Part shown: positions 4,283 to 29,597 of the stretch, piece by piece | Layout: every line of letters starts with the position of its first letter | Numbering within the stretch: the stretch's first letter is position 1 | Source of the DNA: Escherichia coli | GTDB lineage: Bacteria > Pseudomonadota > Gammaproteobacteria > Enterobacterales > Enterobacteriaceae | Direction: 5' to 3' (one strand) | DNA: 31,776 nt | NCBI RefSeq assembly: GCF_003334355.1 | Contig: NZ_QOWP01000037.1 | The notes under the pieces: generated by a model | What the model saw: the letters and a program-made list of their open reading frames with translations, nothing else | Told to the model about the DNA's origin: nothing | The model's database searches: none | Program-made: the position numbers and the translations under genes

Positions 4283-7200
4283 ATGAGCAAACAATCACAG
4301 CATGTATTAATTGCCCTGCCCCACCCGCTGCTTCACCTGGTCAGTTTAGGTTTAGTCTCGTTTATCTTTACCCTTTTCTCGCTTGAGCTTTCGCAGTTTG
4401 GCACCCAACTCGCCCCACTGTGGTTCCCGACGTCCATCATGATGGTGGCGTTTTATCGCCATGCCGGGCGCATGTGGCCGGGAATTGCGCTGAGCTGTTC
4501 GCTGGGAAATATCGCCGCATCCATCCTGCTTTTTTCCACCAGCTCGCTGAACATGACCTGGACGACCATCAATATTGTTGAAGCCGTGGTCGGGGCAGTG
4601 CTGCTACGTAAATTGCTGCCGTGGTATAACCCCTTGCAAAATCTGGCTGACTGGCTGCGTCTGGCACTCGGCAGCGCCATTGTTCCACCTCTGTTGGGGG
4701 GTGTTCTGGTTGTCCTGCTGACACCCGGAGACGATCCTCTCAGGGCATTTTTGATATGGGTACTGTCAGAATCCATCGGCGCTCTGGCACTGGTGCCGCT
4801 GGGATTGTTATTTAAACCGCACTATCTGCTGCGCCATCGCAACCCACGGTTGCTTTTTGAGTCGCTGCTCACGTTAGCCATCACACTGACGTTAAGCTGG
4901 CTTTCGATGCTGTATCTGCCGTGGCCTTTTACTTTCATTATTGTGCTGTTGATGTGGAGCGCCGTGCGCCTGCCACGAATGGAAGCCTTTTTGATCTTCC
5001 TTACCACGGTGATGATGGTGTCGCTGATGATGGCCGCGGATCCCTCCCTGCTTGCTACGCCGCGTACGTACCTGATGAGCCATATGCCGTGGCTACCGTT
5101 TTTGCTGATCCTGCTGCCCGCCAACATCATGACGATGGTGATGTATGCCTTTCGTGCGGAACGCAAACACATTTCCGAAAGCGAAACCCGTTTTCGAAAC
5201 GCGATGGAATATTCCGCCATCGGCATGGCATTAGTGGGCACCGAGGGACAATGGCTGCAATCCAACAAAGCACTCTGCCAGTTTCTCGGTTACAGTCAGG
5301 AAGAGCTGCGTGGACTCACCTTTCAGCAACTGACCTGGCCGGAGGATCTCAATAAAGATCTCCAACAGGTTGAAAAGCTGATAAGCGGTGAAATAAACAC
5401 CTATTCAATGGAAAAACGTTACTACAACCGCAATGGCGATGTTGTCTGGGCGTTGCTTGCCGTCTCTCTGGTGCGCCACACGGATGGCACGCCGCTCTAT
5501 TTTATCGCTCAGATTGAAGACATTAACGAGCTAAAACGCACCGAACAGGTCAATCAGCAACTGATGGAGCGCATCACTCTGGCTAACGAAGCGGGCGGGA
5601 TTGGCATCTGGGAGTGGGAGTTGAAGCCGAATATTTTTAGCTGGGATAAGCGGATGTTCGAGCTGTATGAAATTCCTCCGCATATCAAACCGAACTGGCA
5701 GGTGTGGTACGAGTGCGTGCTGCCGGAAGATCGCCAGCATGCCGAAAAAGTGATTCGTGATTCGTTGCAATCACGCTCGCCCTTTAAGCTGGAATTTCGC
5801 ATTGCTGTGAAAGATGGCATCCGCCATATCCGCGCCCTCGCCAACCGGGTACTGAATAAAGAAGGCGAAGTCGAACGCCTGCTCGGCATTAATATGGATA
5901 TGACTGAGGTTAAACAGCTTAACGAGGCATTGTTTCAGGAAAAAGAGCGCCTGCACATTACGCTTGATTCCATCGGTGAAGCCGTGGTCTGTATTGATAT
6001 GGCGATGAAAATTACCTTTATGAATCCGGTGGCGGAGAAGATGAGCGGCTGGACGCAGGAAGAAGCGTTAGGTGTTCCGCTCCTGACGGTGTTGCATATT
6101 ACTTTTGGCGACAACGGACCATTAATGGAGAACATTTACAGTGCCGACACCTCACGTTCCGCGATCGAGCAAGATGTGGTGTTGCACTGTCGGAGCGGCG
6201 GCAGTTACGACGTGCATTACAGTATTACGCCGTTAAGTACTCTGGACGGCAGCAATATTGGTTCGGTTCTGGTGATTCAGGACGTTACCGAATCACGCAA
6301 AATGCTGCGCCAGCTGAGCTACAGCGCCTCCCATGATGCACTGACGCATCTCGCCAACCGCGCCAGTTTTGAGAAACAACTGCGTATCCTGCTGCAAACG
6401 GTAAACAGTACACATCAGCGACATGCCCTGGTGTTTATCGATCTTGATCGCTTTAAAGCGGTGAATGACAGCGCCGGGCATGCGGCGGGTGACGCTTTGC
6501 TGCGCGAACTGGCGTCGTTAATGCTGAGTATGCTGCGTTCCAGCGACGTGCTGGCGCGACTCGGTGGGGATGAATTTGGTCTGCTGCTACCAGACTGTAA
6601 TGTTGAAAGCGCGCGTTTTATCGCTACACGCATTATCAGTGCCGTGAATGACTATCACTTTATATGGGAAGGCCGTGTGCATCGGGTAGGTGCCAGTGCC
6701 GGGATTACCTTGATTGATGACAACAATCATCAGGCGGCAGAAGTGATGTTGCAGGCTGATATCGCCTGTTATGCCTCCAAAAATGGTGGCCGGGGCCGGG
6801 TGACGGTTTACGAACCGCAGCAAGCTGCCGCACATAGCGAACGGGCGGCGATGTCGCTTGATGAACAGTGGCGGATGATTAAAGAGAATCAGTTGATGAT
6901 GCTCGCCCACGGTGTCGCTTCGCCACGGATCCCGGAAGCGCGTAATTTGTGGCTGATTTCACTTAAGCTCTGGAGTTGCGAAGGCGAGATTATTGATGAA
7001 CAAACATTTCGTCGTAGCTTCAGCGATCCGGCGCTTAGCCATGCTCTTGACCGCCGGGTATTCCACGAATTTTTCCAGCAGGCCGCAAAAGCGGTTGCCA
7101 GTAAAGGCATAAGCATCTCCCTCCCCCTTTCCGTTGCCGGTTTGAGTAGCGCCACGCTGGTGAATGATCTGCTTGAGCAGCTGGAAAATAGCCCTCTACC

Positions 7201-7600
7201 ACCACGGTTATTACATCTGATTATTCCGGCTGAAGCGATTTTAGATCACGCAGAAAGCGTGCAAAAACTGCGGCTGGCGGGATGTCGGATAGTGCTCAGC
7301 CAGGTGGGCCGCGATCTGCAAATCTTCAACTCGCTGAAAGCGAATATGGCAGATTACCTGCTACTTGATGGTGAGTTATGCGCCAACGTGCAGGGTAATT
7401 TGATGGATGAGATGCTGATTACGATTATTCAGGGGCACGCTCAGCGACTCGGGATGAAAACCATCGCCGGGCCAGTCGTTTTACCCTTAGTGATGGATAC
7501 GCTTTCTGGCATCGGCGTCGATCTGATTTATGGTGAGGTGATTGCCGATGCCCAACCGCTGGATTTGCTGGTGAATAGTAGTTATTTCGCGATTAACTGA
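4283..7600 (+). CDS. dgcE: diguanylate cyclase DgcE (MASE1-PAS-PAS-PAS-GGDEF-degenerate EAL)
   Basis: 1105-aa ORF with a hydrophobic N-terminal membrane domain, PAS-like repeats and an intact GGDEF motif (RLGGDEFGLLLPD). The C-terminal EAL-like region lacks the canonical EAL, DDFGTG and EGVE signatures. Confidence 0.9.
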   Translation: MSKQSQHVLIALPHPLLHLVSLGLVSFIFTLFSLELSQFGTQLAPLWFPTSIMMVAFYRHAGRMWPGIALSCSLGNIAASILLFSTSSLNMTWTTINIVEAVVGAVLLRKLLPWYNPLQNLADWLRLALGSAIVPPLLGGVLVVLLTPGDDPLRAFLIWVLSESIGALALVPLGLLFKPHYLLRHRNPRLLFESLLTLAITLTLSWLSMLYLPWPFTFIIVLLMWSAVRLPRMEAFLIFLTTVMMVSLMMAADPSLLATPRTYLMSHMPWLPFLLILLPANIMTMVMYAFRAERKHISESETRFRNAMEYSAIGMALVGTEGQWLQSNKALCQFLGYSQEELRGLTFQQLTWPEDLNKDLQQVEKLISGEINTYSMEKRYYNRNGDVVWALLAVSLVRHTDGTPLYFIAQIEDINELKRTEQVNQQLMERITLANEAGGIGIWEWELKPNIFSWDKRMFELYEIPPHIKPNWQVWYECVLPEDRQHAEKVIRDSLQSRSPFKLEFRIAVKDGIRHIRALANRVLNKEGEVERLLGINMDMTEVKQLNEALFQEKERLHITLDSIGEAVVCIDMAMKITFMNPVAEKMSGWTQEEALGVPLLTVLHITFGDNGPLMENIYSADTSRSAIEQDVVLHCRSGGSYDVHYSITPLSTLDGSNIGSVLVIQDVTESRKMLRQLSYSASHDALTHLANRASFEKQLRILLQTVNSTHQRHALVFIDLDRFKAVNDSAGHAAGDALLRELASLMLSMLRSSDVLARLGGDEFGLLLPDCNVESARFIATRIISAVNDYHFIWEGRVHRVGASAGITLIDDNNHQAAEVMLQADIACYASKNGGRGRVTVYEPQQAAAHSERAAMSLDEQWRMIKENQLMMLAHGVASPRIPEARNLWLISLKLWSCEGEIIDEQTFRRSFSDPALSHALDRRVFHEFFQQAAKAVASKGISISLPLSVAGLSSATLVNDLLEQLENSPLPPRLLHLIIPAEAILDHAESVQKLRLAGCRIVLSQVGRDLQIFNSLKANMADYLLLDGELCANVQGNLMDEMLITIIQGHAQRLGMKTIAGPVVLPLVMDTLSGIGVDLIYGEVIADAQPLDLLVNSSYFAIN

Positions 7601-7616
7601 GGCGTGCTTCCCCATC

Positions 7617-7653
7617 GCCTGATGCGACGCTAACGCGTCTTATCATGCCTACA
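7617..7653. repeat. REP (repetitive extragenic palindromic) element
   Basis: gcctgatgcgacgctaacgcgtcttatcatgcctaca matches the enterobacterial REP consensus family (GCCTGATGCGACGCT...CGTCTTATCAGGCCTAC). Confidence 0.75.
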
Positions 7654-7668
7654 AATCGCTCATTCCCC

Positions 7669-7701
7669 AGGCCGGATAAGGCGCTCGCACCGCATCCGGC
7701 G
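7669..7701. repeat. REP element, inverted partner (BIME-like pair with 7617..7653)
   Basis: aggccggataaggcgctcgcaccgcatccggcg is a REP in opposite orientation; lies between the dgcE stop and the alkA stop. Confidence 0.7.
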
Positions 7702-7708
7702 ACCAACG

Positions 7709-8557
7709 TCATGCTTCGTCTGGTTGCCAGCCTTCCGTATACCAGATATGCAACAGCGCATAAGAACGCCAGGGCTTCCAGCGCTCGGCATAACGGCGGA
7801 TTTGCGCCGGTGTCATTCCCGGAAATCGCTGTTTAATCAGATAATCATCCGGCAGGAAAACATCTTTCGCCTGCCAGCCACGCAAAGCAAAATAATTCGC
7901 CGTCCAGCGCCCGATACCCGGAAAAGTTTGCAGCGTTTTCATCGCCTGCTCCACATCGCCCGGTATTGTCATTGGTAAGGTGCCCTCCAGCGCCGCATTT
8001 GCCAGATGAATCAGCGCCTCTGCCCGTTTCAACGGCATACCTAACGCTTTTAATGCCTGCGGGTCTGCTGCTGCCAGCCGCTGAGGCGTCGGGAAGCAGA
8101 TATACTCCGGAAAATCATCCAGCCGTTCGCCATAAAGCTGTGCCACTCTGGCGGTCAATTTTGCCGCCATCGCCACGCTCACCAGTTGGCCTAAAATCGC
8201 CCGCACGCCCTGCTCAAAAGCATCAACACAGCCGGGTAAACGCAATCCGGGCCGCGCCGCGCCTAACCTGCCCAACGCACCGTTAACAATTTGTGGGTTA
8301 CATTGCAGATCAAACAGGCGGCTCATTTTCGCCAGACACTCTGCGGCAACAGGTTCTAAACCTGCACTTAAATTTATGTGCAGAGTATGGCGGGCTATAT
8401 CCGGAATAGCAGTCACCACGCCGCGATATTCGCCCACCGCCAGACTACGGGCATAATAACTGTCCGCGACCGTTTCCACACTGCTCACCGCACGGGCGGC
8501 GAGAAATCCCAACATCCACGACCAGTCATACGGCGGCTGCCAGTTCAGGGTATACAT
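7709..8557 (-). CDS. alkA: DNA-3-methyladenine glycosylase II
   Basis: 282-aa ORF (MYTLNWQPPYDWSWMLGFLAARAVSSVETV...) with a C-terminal HhH-GPD region (GIGRWTANYFALRG...D). Confidence 0.9.
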   Translation of the reverse strand: MYTLNWQPPYDWSWMLGFLAARAVSSVETVADSYYARSLAVGEYRGVVTAIPDIARHTLHINLSAGLEPVAAECLAKMSRLFDLQCNPQIVNGALGRLGAARPGLRLPGCVDAFEQGVRAILGQLVSVAMAAKLTARVAQLYGERLDDFPEYICFPTPQRLAAADPQALKALGMPLKRAEALIHLANAALEGTLPMTIPGDVEQAMKTLQTFPGIGRWTANYFALRGWQAKDVFLPDDYLIKQRFPGMTPAQIRRYAERWKPWRSYALLHIWYTEGWQPDEA

Positions 8558-26275: not shown

Positions 26276-27637
26276 ATGTTTAAACCGGAACTCCTTTCCC
26301 CGGCGGGAACGCTGAAAAATATGCGTTACGCTTTCGCTTATGGCGCAGATGCTGTTTATGCGGGCCAGCCACGTTACTCCCTGCGTGTGCGCAACAACGA
26401 ATTCAACCACGAAAATCTTCAGCTCGGCATCAATGAAGCCCACGCGCTGGGGAAAAAGTTTTATGTCGTGGTCAACATTGCACCGCACAACGCCAAGCTG
26501 AAAACCTTTATTCGTGACCTGAAACCGGTGGTGGAAATGGGGCCGGATGCGCTGATTATGTCCGATCCAGGGCTGATTATGCTGGTGCGTGAGCACTTCC
26601 CTGAAATGCCGATCCACCTCTCGGTGCAGGCTAACGCCGTAAACTGGGCGACGGTGAAATTCTGGCAGCAAATGGGCCTGACCCGCGTGATCCTCTCTCG
26701 CGAGCTGTCGCTGGAAGAGATTGAAGAGATCCGCAATCAGGTGCCGGATATGGAGATCGAGATCTTCGTTCACGGCGCACTGTGCATGGCCTACTCCGGT
26801 CGCTGCCTGCTCTCTGGCTATATCAACAAGCGCGATCCGAACCAGGGTACCTGCACCAACGCCTGCCGCTGGGAGTACAACGTCCAGGAAGGGAAAGAAG
26901 ATGACGTTGGCAACATCGTACACAAGTACGAGCCGATTCCGGTGCAAAATGTTGAGCCGACGCTGGGTATCGGCGCACCAACCGACAAAGTGTTTATGAT
27001 CGAAGAAGCCCAGCGTCCGGGCGAGTATATGACCGCGTTTGAAGATGAGCACGGCACTTACATCATGAACTCGAAAGATCTGCGCGCCATCGCCCATGTA
27101 GAACGCCTGACCAAAATGGGCGTGCATTCGCTGAAAATCGAAGGCCGTACCAAATCTTTCTACTATTGCGCACGCACCGCACAGGTTTACCGCAAAGCTA
27201 TCGATGATGCCGCTGCGGGCAAACCGTTCGATACCAGCCTGCTGGAAACTCTGGAAGGTCTGGCGCATCGTGGCTATACCGAAGGTTTCCTGCGTCGTCA
27301 TACTCACGACGATTATCAGAACTACGAATACGGTTATTCAGTTTCTGACCGCCAGCAGTTTGTTGGTGAGTTTACCGGTGAGCGCAAGGGGGACCTCGCA
27401 GCGGTAGCGGTGAAAAATAAATTCTCCGTTGGCGACAGCCTTGAGCTGATGACGCCGCAAGGCAACATTTACTTTACCCTTGAGCACATGGAAAACGCCA
27501 AAGGTGAAGCGATGCCGGTCGCACCAGGCGATGGTTATACTGTGTGGCTCCCGGTCCCGCAGGATCTTGAGCTAAATTACGCTCTCCTGATGCGTAATTT
27601 CTCTGGGGAAACCACGCGTAACCCCCACGGTAAGTGA
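26276..27637 (+). CDS. trhP: peptidase U32-family protein YegQ (TrhP, tRNA 5-hydroxyuridine synthesis)
   Basis: 453-aa ORF (MFKPELLSPAGTLKNMRYAFAYGADAVYAGQP...) matching the U32 family as I recall it. Confidence 0.85.
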   Translation: MFKPELLSPAGTLKNMRYAFAYGADAVYAGQPRYSLRVRNNEFNHENLQLGINEAHALGKKFYVVVNIAPHNAKLKTFIRDLKPVVEMGPDALIMSDPGLIMLVREHFPEMPIHLSVQANAVNWATVKFWQQMGLTRVILSRELSLEEIEEIRNQVPDMEIEIFVHGALCMAYSGRCLLSGYINKRDPNQGTCTNACRWEYNVQEGKEDDVGNIVHKYEPIPVQNVEPTLGIGAPTDKVFMIEEAQRPGEYMTAFEDEHGTYIMNSKDLRAIAHVERLTKMGVHSLKIEGRTKSFYYCARTAQVYRKAIDDAAAGKPFDTSLLETLEGLAHRGYTEGFLRRHTHDDYQNYEYGYSVSDRQQFVGEFTGERKGDLAAVAVKNKFSVGDSLELMTPQGNIYFTLEHMENAKGEAMPVAPGDGYTVWLPVPQDLELNYALLMRNFSGETTRNPHGK

Positions 27638-27671
27638 TTAATTTCGATTATTTTTCCCGGATGGAAAATTC

Positions 27672-27714
27672 TTAGAAACCGATCACATACAGCTGCATTT
27701 ATTAAGGTTATCAT
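27672..27714 (+). promoter_or_regulatory. cyaR promoter with CRP-like half-site (class II position)
   Basis: TCACA half-site at 27683-27687 with a degenerate upstream half, centred about 41 nt upstream of the sRNA 5' end; -10 tatcat at 27709-27714. Confidence 0.5.
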
Positions 27715-27721
27715 CCGTTTC

Positions 27722-27808
27722 GCTGAAAAACATAACCCATAAAATGCTAGCTGTACCAGGAACCACCTCCTTAGCCTGTGTAATCTCCCTTACACGGGCT
27801 TATTTTTT
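27722..27808 (+). ncRNA. cyaR: CyaR (RyeE) Hfq-dependent sRNA
   Basis: gctgaaaaacataacccataaaatgctagctgtaccaggaaccacctcctta...cttacacgggcttatttttt matches the CyaR sequence as I recall it, including the terminal hairpin plus U-tract. Confidence 0.85.
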
Positions 27809-27966
27809 ATGCATAAGCCCTATCTCTGGTCACCGTCTTCCATTGACCACATCGATAGAATCCTCCTTCATAGCACGATGCCTTTCACTTATCGGCATCG
27901 TGCTCCCACAGGTTCCGGCTACGCACAGCCAGAACGCGCATATTTGACGCTTACCAAAAAATATTC

Positions 27967-28284
27967 TCACTCTCCACATTTGAATGTCAGACGAGCGACG
28001 CCATGTAATCCTGCACCTTCTGTCTTCAGGTCAACTATCTGCATTTTTTTGCCCTGAGTAACACAGAAATGGGCTGCATCATTTTTTACTATATTTTCTG
28101 CACCAGATATTCTGCCCCTGGCTAAAGAAGCTTCGGCTTCGGTGTAGTATTGGTTATCGAGTTTACGCTGAATATTACTTTTATATGCAAGACCAAATTT
28201 ACCGATACTTGTCTCATCATTATGCACAGCACAACCAGACATAATAAAAATACTAATTAATGATATAGCAGCTATCTTTTTCAT
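27967..28284 (-). CDS. yegR: small lipoprotein YegR
   Basis: Track ORF over-extended to 28389; the start at 28284 gives 105 aa (MKKIAAISLISIFIMSGCAVHND...) with a lipobox (MSGC). The gene and its flanks are markedly AT-rich. Confidence 0.75.
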   Translation of the reverse strand: MKKIAAISLISIFIMSGCAVHNDETSIGKFGLAYKSNIQRKLDNQYYTEAEASLARGRISGAENIVKNDAAHFCVTQGKKMQIVDLKTEGAGLHGVARLTFKCGE

Positions 28285-28697
28285 CTCACCTTTCCCCATT
28301 AAATACCAACGACACTCTCTAGTGTTTAAATATAATAATGGCTGATTATTATATTTGAATAGGATTATAATAAATGTTCTGTACAACATTTCCTACATAA
28401 GTAGGAATTACAGACATGAAGGCCCTTTCCAGGTAACTCCATGGAGCTTTAATATATTTGGAATAGTATATTGAAGATGCCACTGTTTGGTTGAATATTA
28501 GGCATATGCTCTTTTTTGAAATTTATCGGTGGCTACCGTTAATATTCGCTGTTCCCATTGCAAGCTCCTGGTGGTAACCACTGAATCCTCCATACTTGAA
28601 CTGACTTTTTATCCTCCGACTTTCATCCTGTTCTGACTCCACCTTTTCTTTTCTGCTCTACACTATCTACAGACCAATCATAAAGGCACATACGATC

Positions 28698-29597
28698 ATG
28701 GCAGAATTTCCCGCCAGCTTACTGATTCTTAATGGCAAAAGTACTGACAATCTACCCTTGCGCGAAGCAATTATGCTGTTGCGTGAGGAAGGAATGACGA
28801 TCCATGTGCGGGTCACCTGGGAGAAAGGCGATGCCGCACGATATGTAGAGGAGGCCCGGAAGTTGGGCGTCGCAACGGTGATTGCCGGTGGTGGAGATGG
28901 CACCATTAATGAAGTTTCTACGGCGTTGATTCAGTGTGAGGGGGATGACATACCCGCGCTGGGAATTTTGCCATTAGGAACTGCCAATGATTTTGCCACC
29001 AGTGTAGGGATTCCTGAGGCACTGGATAAGGCGCTGAAACTGGCAATTGCCGGTAACGCCATTGCGATAGATATGGCGCAGGTCAACAAACAAACCTGTT
29101 TTATTAATATGGCGACAGGCGGATTTGGGACGCGTATTACCACAGAAACGCCGGAAAAATTAAAAGCCGCGCTGGGTGGCGTCTCTTACATCATTCATGG
29201 CTTAATGCGCATGGATACTCTGCAACCAGACCGTTGTGAAATCCGCGGTGAAAACTTTCACTGGCAAGGTGACGCCCTGGTCATTGGTATTGGTAACGGG
29301 CGTCAGGCCGGTGGCGGTCAGCAATTGTGTCCGAACGCGTTAATTAACGATGGCTTGCTGCAACTGCGCATTTTTACCGGCGATGAAATTCTTCCAGCTC
29401 TCGTATCAACCTTAAAATCTGACGAAGATAACCCGAATATTATCGAAGGCGCTTCGTCGTGGTTTGATATACAAGCCCCACACGAAATCACTTTTAATCT
29501 TGATGGCGAACCGTTGAGTGGGCAAAACTTCCATATTGAAATACTTCCGGCGGCGTTGCGTTGTCGATTACCACCAGATTGTCCATTATTGCGTTAA
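28698..29597 (+). CDS. yegS: lipid kinase YegS (DAG-kinase-like fold)
   Basis: 299-aa ORF with the GGDG motif ([13 protein letters not shown]). Confidence 0.9.

Follow-up and report, generated by a model that had tools for sequence, protein, structure and literature searches.

The yegR island downstream of cyaR in Escherichia coli: probable eroded remains of ancient P2-type integration

Results

Genes and composition of the cyaR-yegR-yegS locus

The DNA analysed is a stretch of 31,776 nucleotides (31.8 kb) from E. coli, hereafter called the window. The following features lie at the locus.

27722 to 27808, plus strand: cyaR (ryeE) small RNA gene, including its intrinsic terminator (Rfam RF00112)
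27782 to 27808: 27-nt P2 att core AATCTCCCTTACACGGGCTTATTTTTT, covering the cyaR terminator from its loop through the 3' stem to the U-tail; insertion site of present-day P2-like prophages
27809 to 28616: yegR island, 808 nt, GC 0.392, present in E. coli; delimited by alignment to E69 (L124) and Escherichia albertii (L024)
27967 to 28284, minus strand: yegR, encoding a 105-aa lipoprotein, putatively of the YegR family (PF27694), from the ORF and its homologues; the only intact gene of the island
28617 to 28697, plus strand: ancestral yegS leader, beginning CGACTTTCATCCTGTTCTGAC, which in E69 and E. albertii lies no more than 7 nt past the cyaR core and is recognisable in Enterobacter
28698 to 29597, plus strand: yegS (lipid kinase), from the ORF and the RefSeq annotation

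The CyaR/RyeE model RF00112 matched 27720-27805 over positions 1-85 of 85 with 100.7 bits (gathering threshold, 47; E 2e-20), and the terminator hairpin is located at 27773-27800. Because only CyaR was matched in an Rfam E-value scan of 27000-29200, the yegR-yegS spacer contains no known sRNA. The att core has the very sequence that is annotated as the attP core of P2. Occupied E. coli genomes break exactly at the core end (query position 283 in one search and 93 in another), and both the int side of the O157 prophage and the K-12 remnant adjoin the core. That cyaR is a P2 site, with an "ogr-D'" remnant in K-12 and an empty site in strain Crooks, has been published previously (PMC3032704).

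An earlier note on this DNA had described 27810-28700 as AT-rich, and a composition scan of the 31.8 kb agreed: GC is 0.395 there versus 0.525 in the whole window, and the window's GC minima at sizes of 300, 500, 600 and 900 nt all fall in this region (900-nt windows across the stretch: mean 0.526, sd 0.038). It should be mentioned that the AT-rich part starts near 27950 and not at the cyaR end. The cyaR-yegR spacer (27809-27966) has an ordinary GC of 0.487, and the values for yegR and the yegR-yegS intergenic region are 0.384 and 0.368, respectively. From the cyaR 3' end at 27808 to the yegR stop codon, we measured 158 nt, close to the gap of about 160 nt noted before; the yegR-yegS intergenic region is 413 nt long, not about 300 nt as had been thought.

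YegR starts with MKKIAAISLISIFIMSGC and possesses the lipobox ...FIMSGC18 of a bacterial lipoprotein, in which Cys18 is invariant among 16 diverse homologues. A Cys74/Cys103 pair is also conserved. The GC3 of yegR is 0.283 versus 0.634 for yegQ and 0.470 for yegS. Thus, both the lipobox and the codon composition fit the small lipoprotein with AT-biased codons that had been proposed. YegR was detected in the O157 proteome and classed as a lipoprotein with the lipobox MSGC (PMC3210124), and a yegR knockout showed no phenotype in glucose-limited chemostats (PMC3708739). Judged by dN/dS, yegR is under purifying selection, the ratio being 0.08 in comparison with an 81%-identical homologue and 0.1-0.3 among E. 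coli copies. This 81%-identical copy is in a different chromosomal context and dS is saturated. In the AF2 model, residues 40-105 have pLDDT values above 90. The assignment to PF27694 is a precomputed one on proteins 96-99% identical to the YegR of the window; a direct Pfam-A scan gave no significant family, and comparison of YegR with NCBIfam gave nothing significant. The family had only 37 matches among 1.84 billion representatives, and its members occur in at least four unrelated contexts, one of them IS-flanked.

A second lipoprotein gene has decayed: about a fifth of E. coli still have a stump of 170 bp, and these last 170 bp are deleted in the window. In the +170 allele, the N-terminus of orf110 of L017 was matched past yegR (tblastn, E 2.9e-6), and the DNA homology between this allele and L017 extends 118 nt beyond the yegR stop.

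Boundaries and species distribution of the island

We compared at least 120 cyaR loci in Enterobacterales. Because E. fergusonii, E. marmotae and other cryptic clades lie outside this sample, the timing of the insertion is known only roughly. In most species yegS directly follows cyaR, the YegS match lying 96-170 nt past the cyaR match; cyaR-yegS without YegR was found in Citrobacter, Enterobacter, Raoultella, Kosakonia, Yersinia, Serratia and many more. Among the matches listed, there was no YegR match at the cyaR locus in at least 120 non-E. coli loci. The island is thus AT-rich (GC 0.392 versus 0.525), essentially occurs at this locus only in E. coli/Shigella and is absent from the syntenic site in at least 120 loci of other species. 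In other words, it has the properties of xenogeneic DNA, as expected from the earlier suggestion of horizontal acquisition.

The edges of the island were defined by two genomes. In E69 (L124), an outlier labelled as E. coli, the core is followed by TGTACCA (7 nt) and CGACTTTC, and there is no island. In E. albertii (L024), the order is core, P2-type arm, 3.4-kb insert, second core, and then TGTACCG and CGACTTTC. The empty arrangement common to E69 and the far side in E. albertii is therefore core, TGTACCR and CGACTTTC. From this arrangement, the island starts at the last core base and ends within 7 nt of a P2-type attR end. On these alignments, the truly empty site is the cyaR core, approximately 7 nt and the yegS leader, in agreement with the adjacency of cyaR and yegS in most other genera.

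The E. albertii insert is a block of att-bounded, low-GC cargo (0.41) at the cyaR core, the 3.4 kb carrying no phage structural genes, and the yegR island would be a block of the same kind. In contrast to the yegR island, its cargo is the cytolethal distending toxin B subunit gene (cdtB) with two flanking ORFs, its second core and arm are well preserved, and it adjoins the ancestral flank directly, with no yegR. Remnants with ogr/D were also seen at the cyaR site in Citrobacter and Buttiauxella.

Occupancy of the cyaR site in E. coli

Where the core meets the flank in the window, a K-12-type genome has an additional stretch of exactly 630 bases, annotated as ogrK and a truncated "phage late control D" pseudogene. 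The earlier note had placed a P2-like remnant (ogrK/yegZ) at this point in K-12 that is missing here, and the 630 bp account for it. In the window, neither an ogrK/D' remnant nor a prophage lies between the core and the ATGCATAAGCCC flank. Thus, the description as an unoccupied junction holds relative to K-12; strictly, it does not hold, because 808 nt separate the core from the ancestral flank CGACTTTC and the site is not an empty P2 attB (locI). The absence of the remnant, which had been singled out, is the majority state of the species: in an even sample of 60 complete E. coli genomes, about 47 (approximately 78%) are insert-free, and about 5% possess a K-12-type remnant.

The cryptic K-12 remnant (ogrK and the D' pseudogene yegZ, at cyaR/locI) shares with the island the att core, the orientation and an ogr-side arm beside cyaR. 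Its anatomy, with a full core, arm DNA, surviving genes and a truncated second core CTACACGGGCTTATTTTTTT, is like the one proposed for the island. However, the K-12 remnant, which is located between the core and the yegR island, is young, having recognisable phage genes and a near-identical arm sequence, whereas the yegR island appears older: it is fixed in E. coli (5424/5426 genomes), no phage genes are recognisable in it and its att features have diverged by 14-33%.

Sequences resembling P2 att at both ends of the island

Three segments of the island resemble parts of P2 attP.

27821 to 27855: predicted P-arm site for a P2-type Int, now vestigial, with one TGTGGTC repeat intact and the second decayed
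28546 to 28583: vestigial similarity to P2 attP on the int-proximal side of its core, the distance to the core being kept in register
28584 to 28610: putative degenerate second att core AATCCTCCATACTTGAACTGACTTTTT, 18/27 identical, in the orientation of the true core, at the right edge of the island

The P-arm vestige agrees with the "Int P arm" feature of P2 at 31/36 aligned positions, a score that none of 2000 shuffles reached, and it is kept in K-12, O157 and B2-type strains. When the int-side flank was aligned globally with the register fixed, none of 5000 shuffles equalled it at 30, 40 or 80 nt, and it is the best 40-mer match on the plus strand of the window. Unconstrained local alignment of the right part of the island with the int side of P2, O157 and E. 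albertii gave no significance. The degenerate core is the best non-self ungapped match to the core among 63,500 positions on both strands; its shuffle P is 0.002 in the 81-nt junction neighbourhood and 0.02 anywhere in the island, and the corresponding region in other strains has 16-18/27 identities. Taken alone in unconstrained gapped local scoring, it is not significant. Because the degenerate core scores weakly with gaps and the flank is significant only in a fixed register, the weight of both rests on their position. The degenerate core is separated from the conserved leader by 6 nt, ATCCTC, which do not match the ancestral TGTACCR. The block has two properties of a P2-type prophage remnant, namely its location at the P2 att core and attP arms beside the cores in the correct order and orientation. 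A third core-like scar after the arm vestige, the exact 11-mer AATCTCCCTTA in +170 alleles, reached only the 95th percentile of shuffles and is not claimed.

P2 attP and the preferred bacterial site locI were reportedly described in E. coli C by Barreiro and Haggard-Ljungquist in 1992. As in P2, the 27-nt core is intact here, the left end of the island is similar to the annotated Int P-arm site and the right end is similar to the int-side core flank. Unlike P2, the window lacks the IHF-site segment that separates the core from the P arm (12 nt versus about 28 in P2), and a single arm repeat is intact where P2 has two.

Searches for phage genes and phage carriage of yegR

A tblastn search of the island with P2 Int, Ogr, D, C and Cox gave E values above 0.4 in all cases, and thus no recognisable gene of these phage proteins. 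We therefore classify the block as the fossil of an integration event and not as a prophage remnant defined by gene content. Among phage genomes and viral contigs, yegR was not found inside a phage genome save for overshoot at provirus boundaries. When IMG/VR was scanned with the YegR alignment, all copies recovered were from E. coli; almost all of them lay at the ends of proviruses and, in the top 80 matches, at the very end. Several candidates for phage carriage were discarded. The only two phage records matching the 158-nt spacer or YegR are prophage extractions that also contain yegS and gatR beside yegR, and thus host flank. The strong PHROG match phrog_21109 was set aside given the provirus-end overshoot of the IMG/VR copies, and a viral contig of 48 kb, at either end of which yegR occurs, is a palindromic assembly artefact. 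Prophage predictors habitually include yegR: it stands at the ends of IMG/VR entries, makes up a PHROG family of its own and is part of a record deposited in GenBank as a "phage". Finding yegR in phage databases should therefore not be taken to mean phage carriage.

P2-like phages carry AT-rich lysogenic-conversion cargo (the tin, old and Z/fun regions), and tin is annotated in the P2 record. The resemblance to yegR is that of small AT-rich non-phage genes left in the host after prophage decay. In contrast to this cargo, yegR was in no phage genome found, and its position is what suggests a cargo status.

Regulatory elements around yegR

28325 to 28352, plus strand: promoter-like TTTAAA-16-TATTAT facing yegS, from a consensus scan; inside the island
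28390 to 28407: predicted EvgA-box-like palindrome TTCCTACATAAGTAGGAA, lying upstream of yegR at 106 nt from its start codon
27872 to 27935, minus strand: two stable hairpins in the yegR 3' region (27872-27904, 11-bp stem; 27912-27935, 10-bp stem), neither with a U tract

In K-12, the yegR-yegS spacer is flagged as an H-NS site by genomic SELEX, which supports the H-NS involvement considered possible in the earlier note, and a "constitutive" yegS promoter, TTTAAA-17-TATTAT, is listed in it (PMC3946193). From its sequence, the element at 28325-28352 is probably this promoter. A scan of the window for the EvgA box gave a single site, 28390-28407, with 1 mismatch, where 0.02 would be expected by chance. 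We take the consensus of the EvgA box to be the 18-bp inverted repeat TTCYTACA-N2-TGTARGAA, for which Masuda and Church (2002) is said to be the primary source. When the motif was checked in K-12, the upstream regions of emrK-evgA, frc and yfdX gave 3 matches versus 0.03 expected. Three further E. coli lineages have kept the box; the upstream regions of yegR homologues elsewhere lack it. Binding of EvgA to the yegR promoter is stated in a review (PMC8147483), and yegR is co-induced with ydeO, yfdX and frc (PMC5811628). Thus, yegR resembles the xenogeneic genes of the EvgAS regulon (ydeP, safA-ydeO, yfdX, frc and emrKY) in having an AT-rich promoter flagged for H-NS, an 18-bp EvgA-type palindrome and co-induction.

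The two hairpins in the yegR 3' region fold with -47.6 kcal/mol (z = -2.74). A terminator scan of the minus strand found no intrinsic terminator for yegR. With no such terminator and, in this common configuration, only 158 nt between the yegR stop codon and the convergent cyaR 3' end, antisense read-through might occur. An EvgAS-induced yegR transcript would then run across cyaR, so that the amount of CyaR, a CRP-dependent sRNA, would depend on the acid response, and the 630-bp remnant of K-12 or a 30-kb prophage at the core would weaken or abolish this coupling. We regard this idea as speculative and doubtful; if true, occupancy of the att site would alter host sRNA regulation.

Discussion

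cyaR as a P2 site, the K-12 remnant and the empty site of Crooks were already in the literature; the boundaries of the island, the att-type vestiges at its ends, its species distribution, the selection on yegR and the presence of the EvgA-type motif are observed here. We propose, with a probability of roughly 0.65, that 27809-28616 is the eroded remains of one or more ancient P2-type integrations at the att core of the cyaR 3' end. In this proposal, one or more ancient P2-type phages would have integrated site-specifically, presumably by Int, into the core that forms the cyaR 3' end. As part of a working sRNA terminator, the left core would have been kept perfect, whereas the right core and the attP arms would have been free to decay, with the loss of all phage genes. 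The surviving cargo would be a two-gene lipoprotein cassette, of which yegR is intact and the second gene decayed. Given the reported H-NS binding and the EvgA box upstream, the most likely regime for yegR is default silencing, relieved when the EvgAS acid-response regulon is induced, and H-NS and EvgA may act in this way in the strain studied. Later P2-like phages may have reused the intact core on the cyaR side, giving the ogrK/D' remnant of K-12 and the full prophages of O157, B and W; the window would have none of these later insertions, which is the commonest state of E. coli. The P-arm vestige could derive from a later prophage, separate from any that delivered yegR.

The locus could instead be a naive, unoccupied P2 attB beside an unrelated AT-rich gene, with yegR having arrived by a non-P2 route (illegitimate recombination or another element) and the likeness to att being due to chance or to scars of later P2 phages. 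An island without phage genes, a yegR not found as phage cargo and the weakness of the degenerate core in gapped scoring are all in line with this, as are the yegR homologues elsewhere, which are not beside att sites or integrases and one of which is IS-flanked. However, both edges of the island fit a P2 slot, within 0 and 7 nt, and chance would have to place the best core-like 27-mer of the window at the right junction in the correct orientation, together with an in-register flank and a 31/36 left arm. We therefore consider such an origin unlikely, while giving it some weight. There is also little to recommend low GC as ordinary intergenic and small-gene composition, with yegR a fast-evolving native orphan. 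In E. coli, intergenic DNA tends to be richer in AT than coding DNA, and intergenic sequence makes up 413 of the 891 nt, but the coding part itself has a GC of 0.384 and a GC3 of 0.283 versus 0.634 in the neighbour gene, and the region is the compositional minimum at every window size. Moreover, the gene is missing at the syntenic site in every other species examined (at least 120 loci), and the 81%-identical copy with saturated dS stands in another chromosomal context. These points make a native orphan hardly credible.

Another scenario concerns the timing. The yegR block might be ancestral to the Escherichia lineage and have been lost precisely in E69 and E. albertii, for example by Int recombination between the cores, instead of being gained on the E. 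coli stem. An att-bounded element can excise cleanly, and P2-type activity or a clean core is seen at the site in E. albertii and E69. Because many outgroup genera have cyaR then yegS with no YegR, gain is far more parsimonious, and we judge ancestral presence to be improbable. Even if it were true, the block would still be an att-bounded element; the timing would change and its nature would be the same.

The reading of the island as a fossil of P2-type integration is a modest evolutionary refinement and introduces no new kind of system. It offers a concrete origin for yegR, an E. coli-specific orphan gene. The classic preferred P2 site in E. coli would be the left junction surviving from an older insertion and not naive host DNA, with later phages stacking on the cyaR side. 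In this way, the 3' end of an sRNA gene may keep an att site perfect while the DNA downstream erodes and turns over, as with yegR in E. coli, cdtB in E. albertii and ogr/D in Citrobacter and Buttiauxella.

Composition and variation of the locus

The window is E. coli DNA. In a genome comparison over the segment, strain AR_0369 was the best match (99.9% identity); most genomes are 95-99% identical. The gene order is as follows.

26276-27637, plus strand: yegQ/trhP, left of cyaR
27722-27808, plus strand: cyaR (Rfam RF00112, 100.7 bits against a threshold of 47)
27967-28284, minus strand: yegR, an ORF with a lipoprotein signal peptide at its start
28698-29597, plus strand: yegS
29679-30458, minus strand: gatR

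As the earlier note had described, 27810-28700 is AT-rich (GC 0.395 versus 0.525 in the window), and the GC minimum of all 31.8 kb falls here at every window size tried. The AT-rich sequence begins near the yegR 3′ end; the cyaR-yegR spacer, estimated in that note at about 160 nt, is 158 nt long and of ordinary GC (0.487). The AT-biased codons of yegR were also confirmed (GC3 0.283 versus 0.634 for yegQ), and YegR has been detected as a lipoprotein in an O157 proteome (PMC3210124).

The window allele of 27500-28800 is uncommon: only 92 of 5,427 records match it at 99% identity or more, most being at 95-99%. Strain-to-strain divergence is highest in the intergenic part of the island (94-96% identity). 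The window has a complete gatR (259 aa); in a K-12-type genome the gene is truncated beside an IS3 element (L001 4302-4923). IS1 activity at the locus was seen in H7 (NZ_CP147109.1) and L140 (NZ_CM186189.1, strain EC24.26): in one of them IS1 is inserted in yegR, and in the other an IS1-bounded rearrangement leaves a match starting only inside yegS, with polysaccharide genes upstream.

The cyaR terminator as a P2 attachment site

The part of the cyaR terminator from the loop through the 3′ stem to the U-tail is the 27-nt sequence AATCTCCCTTACACGGGCTTATTTTTT (27782-27808), which the P2 genome record annotates, base for base, as the attP core. In the paper on the E. coli W genome, 'cyaR RNA' is named as a P2 insertion site (PMC3032704): W has a complete prophage there, B a P2 element and K-12 'ogr-D'', and Crooks has no insert. 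The K-12 remnant mentioned in the earlier note was found: at the junction, a K-12-type genome is longer by exactly 630 bases, whose annotation is ogrK plus a D (phage late control) gene that is cut short; alignment placed them after the complete 27-nt core and before a second, truncated one. Thus, the facts in that note on composition, lipoprotein and K-12 junction were right. The normal E. coli state is without the K-12 remnant, and a second genome comparison was consistent with the frequencies below.

Forms of the junction in an even 60-row sample from 5,426 complete genomes
Window-like: 36/60
Window-like plus 170 bp: 11/60
K-12-type remnant: 3/60
Occupied, split exactly at the first core base: 9/60
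Deletion: 1/60

P2-type arm sequence (…AATGAAATAAA.GGATTTATTTC…) directly follows the cyaR core in six loci from Enterobacter sp., Citrobacter spp. and a Buttiauxella MAG (L025, L035, L045, L054, L096 and L108), and Ogr and/or D matches lie downstream of cyaR in L045, L054 and L108. Because such arms occur in several other genera, the role of the cyaR 3′ end as a P2-family att site extends far outside E. coli.

An 808-nt block occupies the slot in E. coli

One genome per species was scanned for the conserved CyaR core, and the 120 cyaR loci among the matches listed were oriented on it. YegS starts about 96-170 nt past the cyaR match in most Enterobacterales, and outside E. coli no YegR match was found at any of these 120 loci. 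In E69, which is labelled E. coli and is only about 90-96% identical here, the core is followed by TGTACCA and CGACTTTCATCC, straight into yegS. In E. albertii the order is core, P2-type arm, 3.4-kb insert, second core, TGTACCG and CGACTTTCATCC. Judged from these two Escherichia-level alignments, the island boundaries are those of an 808-nt block, 27809-28616 (GC 0.392). Both arrangements indicate that E. coli carries this block in the slot where P2-type elements integrate. Its GC and the distribution of YegR support the horizontal acquisition suggested in the earlier note. The proposal of an unoccupied junction holds relative to K-12 only; strictly, the block fills the slot, and the junction is not pristine.

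The E. albertii insert (NBRC 107761, L024 4957-8322, GC 0.41), bounded by the arm and second core, has ORFs at 5932-6708, 6705-7514 and 7529-8074. The middle one encodes a cytolethal distending toxin B subunit (NCBIfam, 364 bits versus a cutoff of 189); the secreted or lipoprotein-like ORFs on each side are presumably cdtA and cdtC. Across genera, the yegS leader motif CTTTCATCCTGTTCT(G/T)AC directly follows the cyaR terminator (Enterobacter L052, L101 and L112; window counterpart 28617-28660). It may be an ancestral yegS promoter or leader, in E. coli now 0.8 kb away from cyaR.

Att-like vestiges at both ends

On the left, 27821-27855 aligns to the annotated P2 feature 'Int, P arm' with 31 identities in 36 positions, a score reached by none of 2000 shuffles. 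One TGTGGTC repeat is intact, one is decayed, and the IHF segment is missing. On the right, 18 of the 27 bases at 28584-28610 agree with the core in the same orientation, the best non-self match among 63,500 window positions (shuffle P 0.002 in the junction neighbourhood, 0.02 anywhere in the island). With the register relative to the core fixed, the 30-40 nt immediately before it align with the flank on the int side of the P2 attP core at a score that none of 5000 shuffles reached, and no other 40-mer on the plus strand of the window matches better; under unconstrained local alignment neither right-end core nor flank was significant. The 6 nt following the degenerate core differ from the ancestral TGTACCR. 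No trace of P2 genes is left in the island at the protein level. The att-like features of both ends are conserved in K-12, O157 and B2-type alleles.

Directly past the P-arm vestige, +170 alleles (L003 1860-1870) have AATCTCCCTTA, identical to the opening 11 nt of the core; the window counterpart is AATCCTCCTTC at 27859-27869. This may be a third integration scar, its score lying only at the 95th percentile of shuffles.

In about 18% of the E. coli sampled, a further 170 bp (GC 0.30) separate the spacer from the yegR stop codon (L003, strain CUVET20-PYO1, 1964-2135; window point about 27955/27956). Where yegR lies in a glutaminase-nitroreductase-ivy-acs context, another small lipoprotein gene (about 110 aa) comes next, intact in L017 and L142. 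In the +170 form, DNA homology runs 118 nt beyond the yegR stop (tblastn E 2.9e-6 to this gene). By this homology, the 170 bp are the decayed 5′ (N-terminal) end of the second gene, which makes the 158-nt spacer of the window a derived deletion.

YegR family and regulation

The YegR family is very small (37 matches among 1.84 billion representatives). E. coli and Shigella copies are mostly near-identical; divergent ones (47-82% identity) lie in unrelated places, namely the ivy-acs neighbourhood, an IS-rich region of an Enterobacter genome, beside dnaG-rpoD and beside a bestrophin-like gene. The dN/dS values (0.08 versus an 81%-identical copy, 0.1-0.3 within E. coli) indicate constraint on yegR. 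In a 16-sequence alignment the lipobox Cys is invariant, with an E-A-x(3-4)-G-R-x-x-G-A motif and a conserved Cys74/Cys103 pair. The mature domain is confidently modelled by AF2, and fold searches led no further than the generic class of DUF4156/YecR-like small lipoproteins. In chemostats, knocking out yegR produced no phenotype (PMC3708739).

Repeated modules like the YegR C-terminal half (residues ~45-102) occur in a few very large proteins (P0107, 1461 aa with 10 matched stretches; P0112, P0115, P0116, P0117 and P0118), and the fold may also exist as a repeat unit. In three enteric loci (L017 7915-8361, L142 1792-2238, L143 1873-2295), ivy (inhibitor of vertebrate lysozyme) lies 1-3 genes from the yegR homologue, which may hint at the function of a small lipoprotein that faces the periplasm.

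The palindrome TTCCTACATAAGTAGGAA (28390-28407) lies 106 nt upstream of yegR and fits the EvgA box consensus; the window has no second site of this kind. An empirical check bore the consensus out: within 30 kb around evgAS of K-12 the motif has 3 sites against 0.03 expected, in the upstream regions of emrK-evgA, frc and yfdX. The palindrome is kept in other E. coli lineages and is absent ahead of the yegR homologues elsewhere. According to a review, EvgA binds the yegR promoter (PMC8147483); induction of yegR goes together with that of ydeO, yfdX and frc, in K-12 also with that of the downstream ogrK (PMC5811628). The H-NS involvement considered in the earlier note is supported by genomic SELEX, which lists an H-NS site in the yegR-yegS spacer and promoters facing either gene (PMC3946193). 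The one facing yegS is probably the island sequence TTTAAA-16-TATTAT at 28325-28352, by sequence correspondence. The yegR 3′ region has two strong hairpins with no U tract behind them, so read-through towards cyaR is possible.

Origin of the block

Entries for yegR in phage resources (phrog_21109; ON470606.1; IMG/VR loci L145-L224) were rejected as evidence of phage carriage, since they arise only where a provirus was delimited too widely and takes in host DNA. In nearly all of the best 80 matching viral contigs yegR is the outermost gene, and the GenBank 'phage' record ON470606.1 (L006) also holds yegS and gatR. IMGVR_UViG_2565956724_000008 (47,980 bp; L216, L217) has yegR at both ends; its 10.3-kb ends are 100% identical once one is inverted, and the contig is thus a palindromic assembly artefact.

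We propose, with a probability of roughly two in three, that the yegR block is the fossil of an ancient P2-type integration at the cyaR core, which would have been stripped down to one domesticated lipoprotein gene, yegR, wired into the EvgAS regulon. The att site and the kind of element were already known; the example is new.
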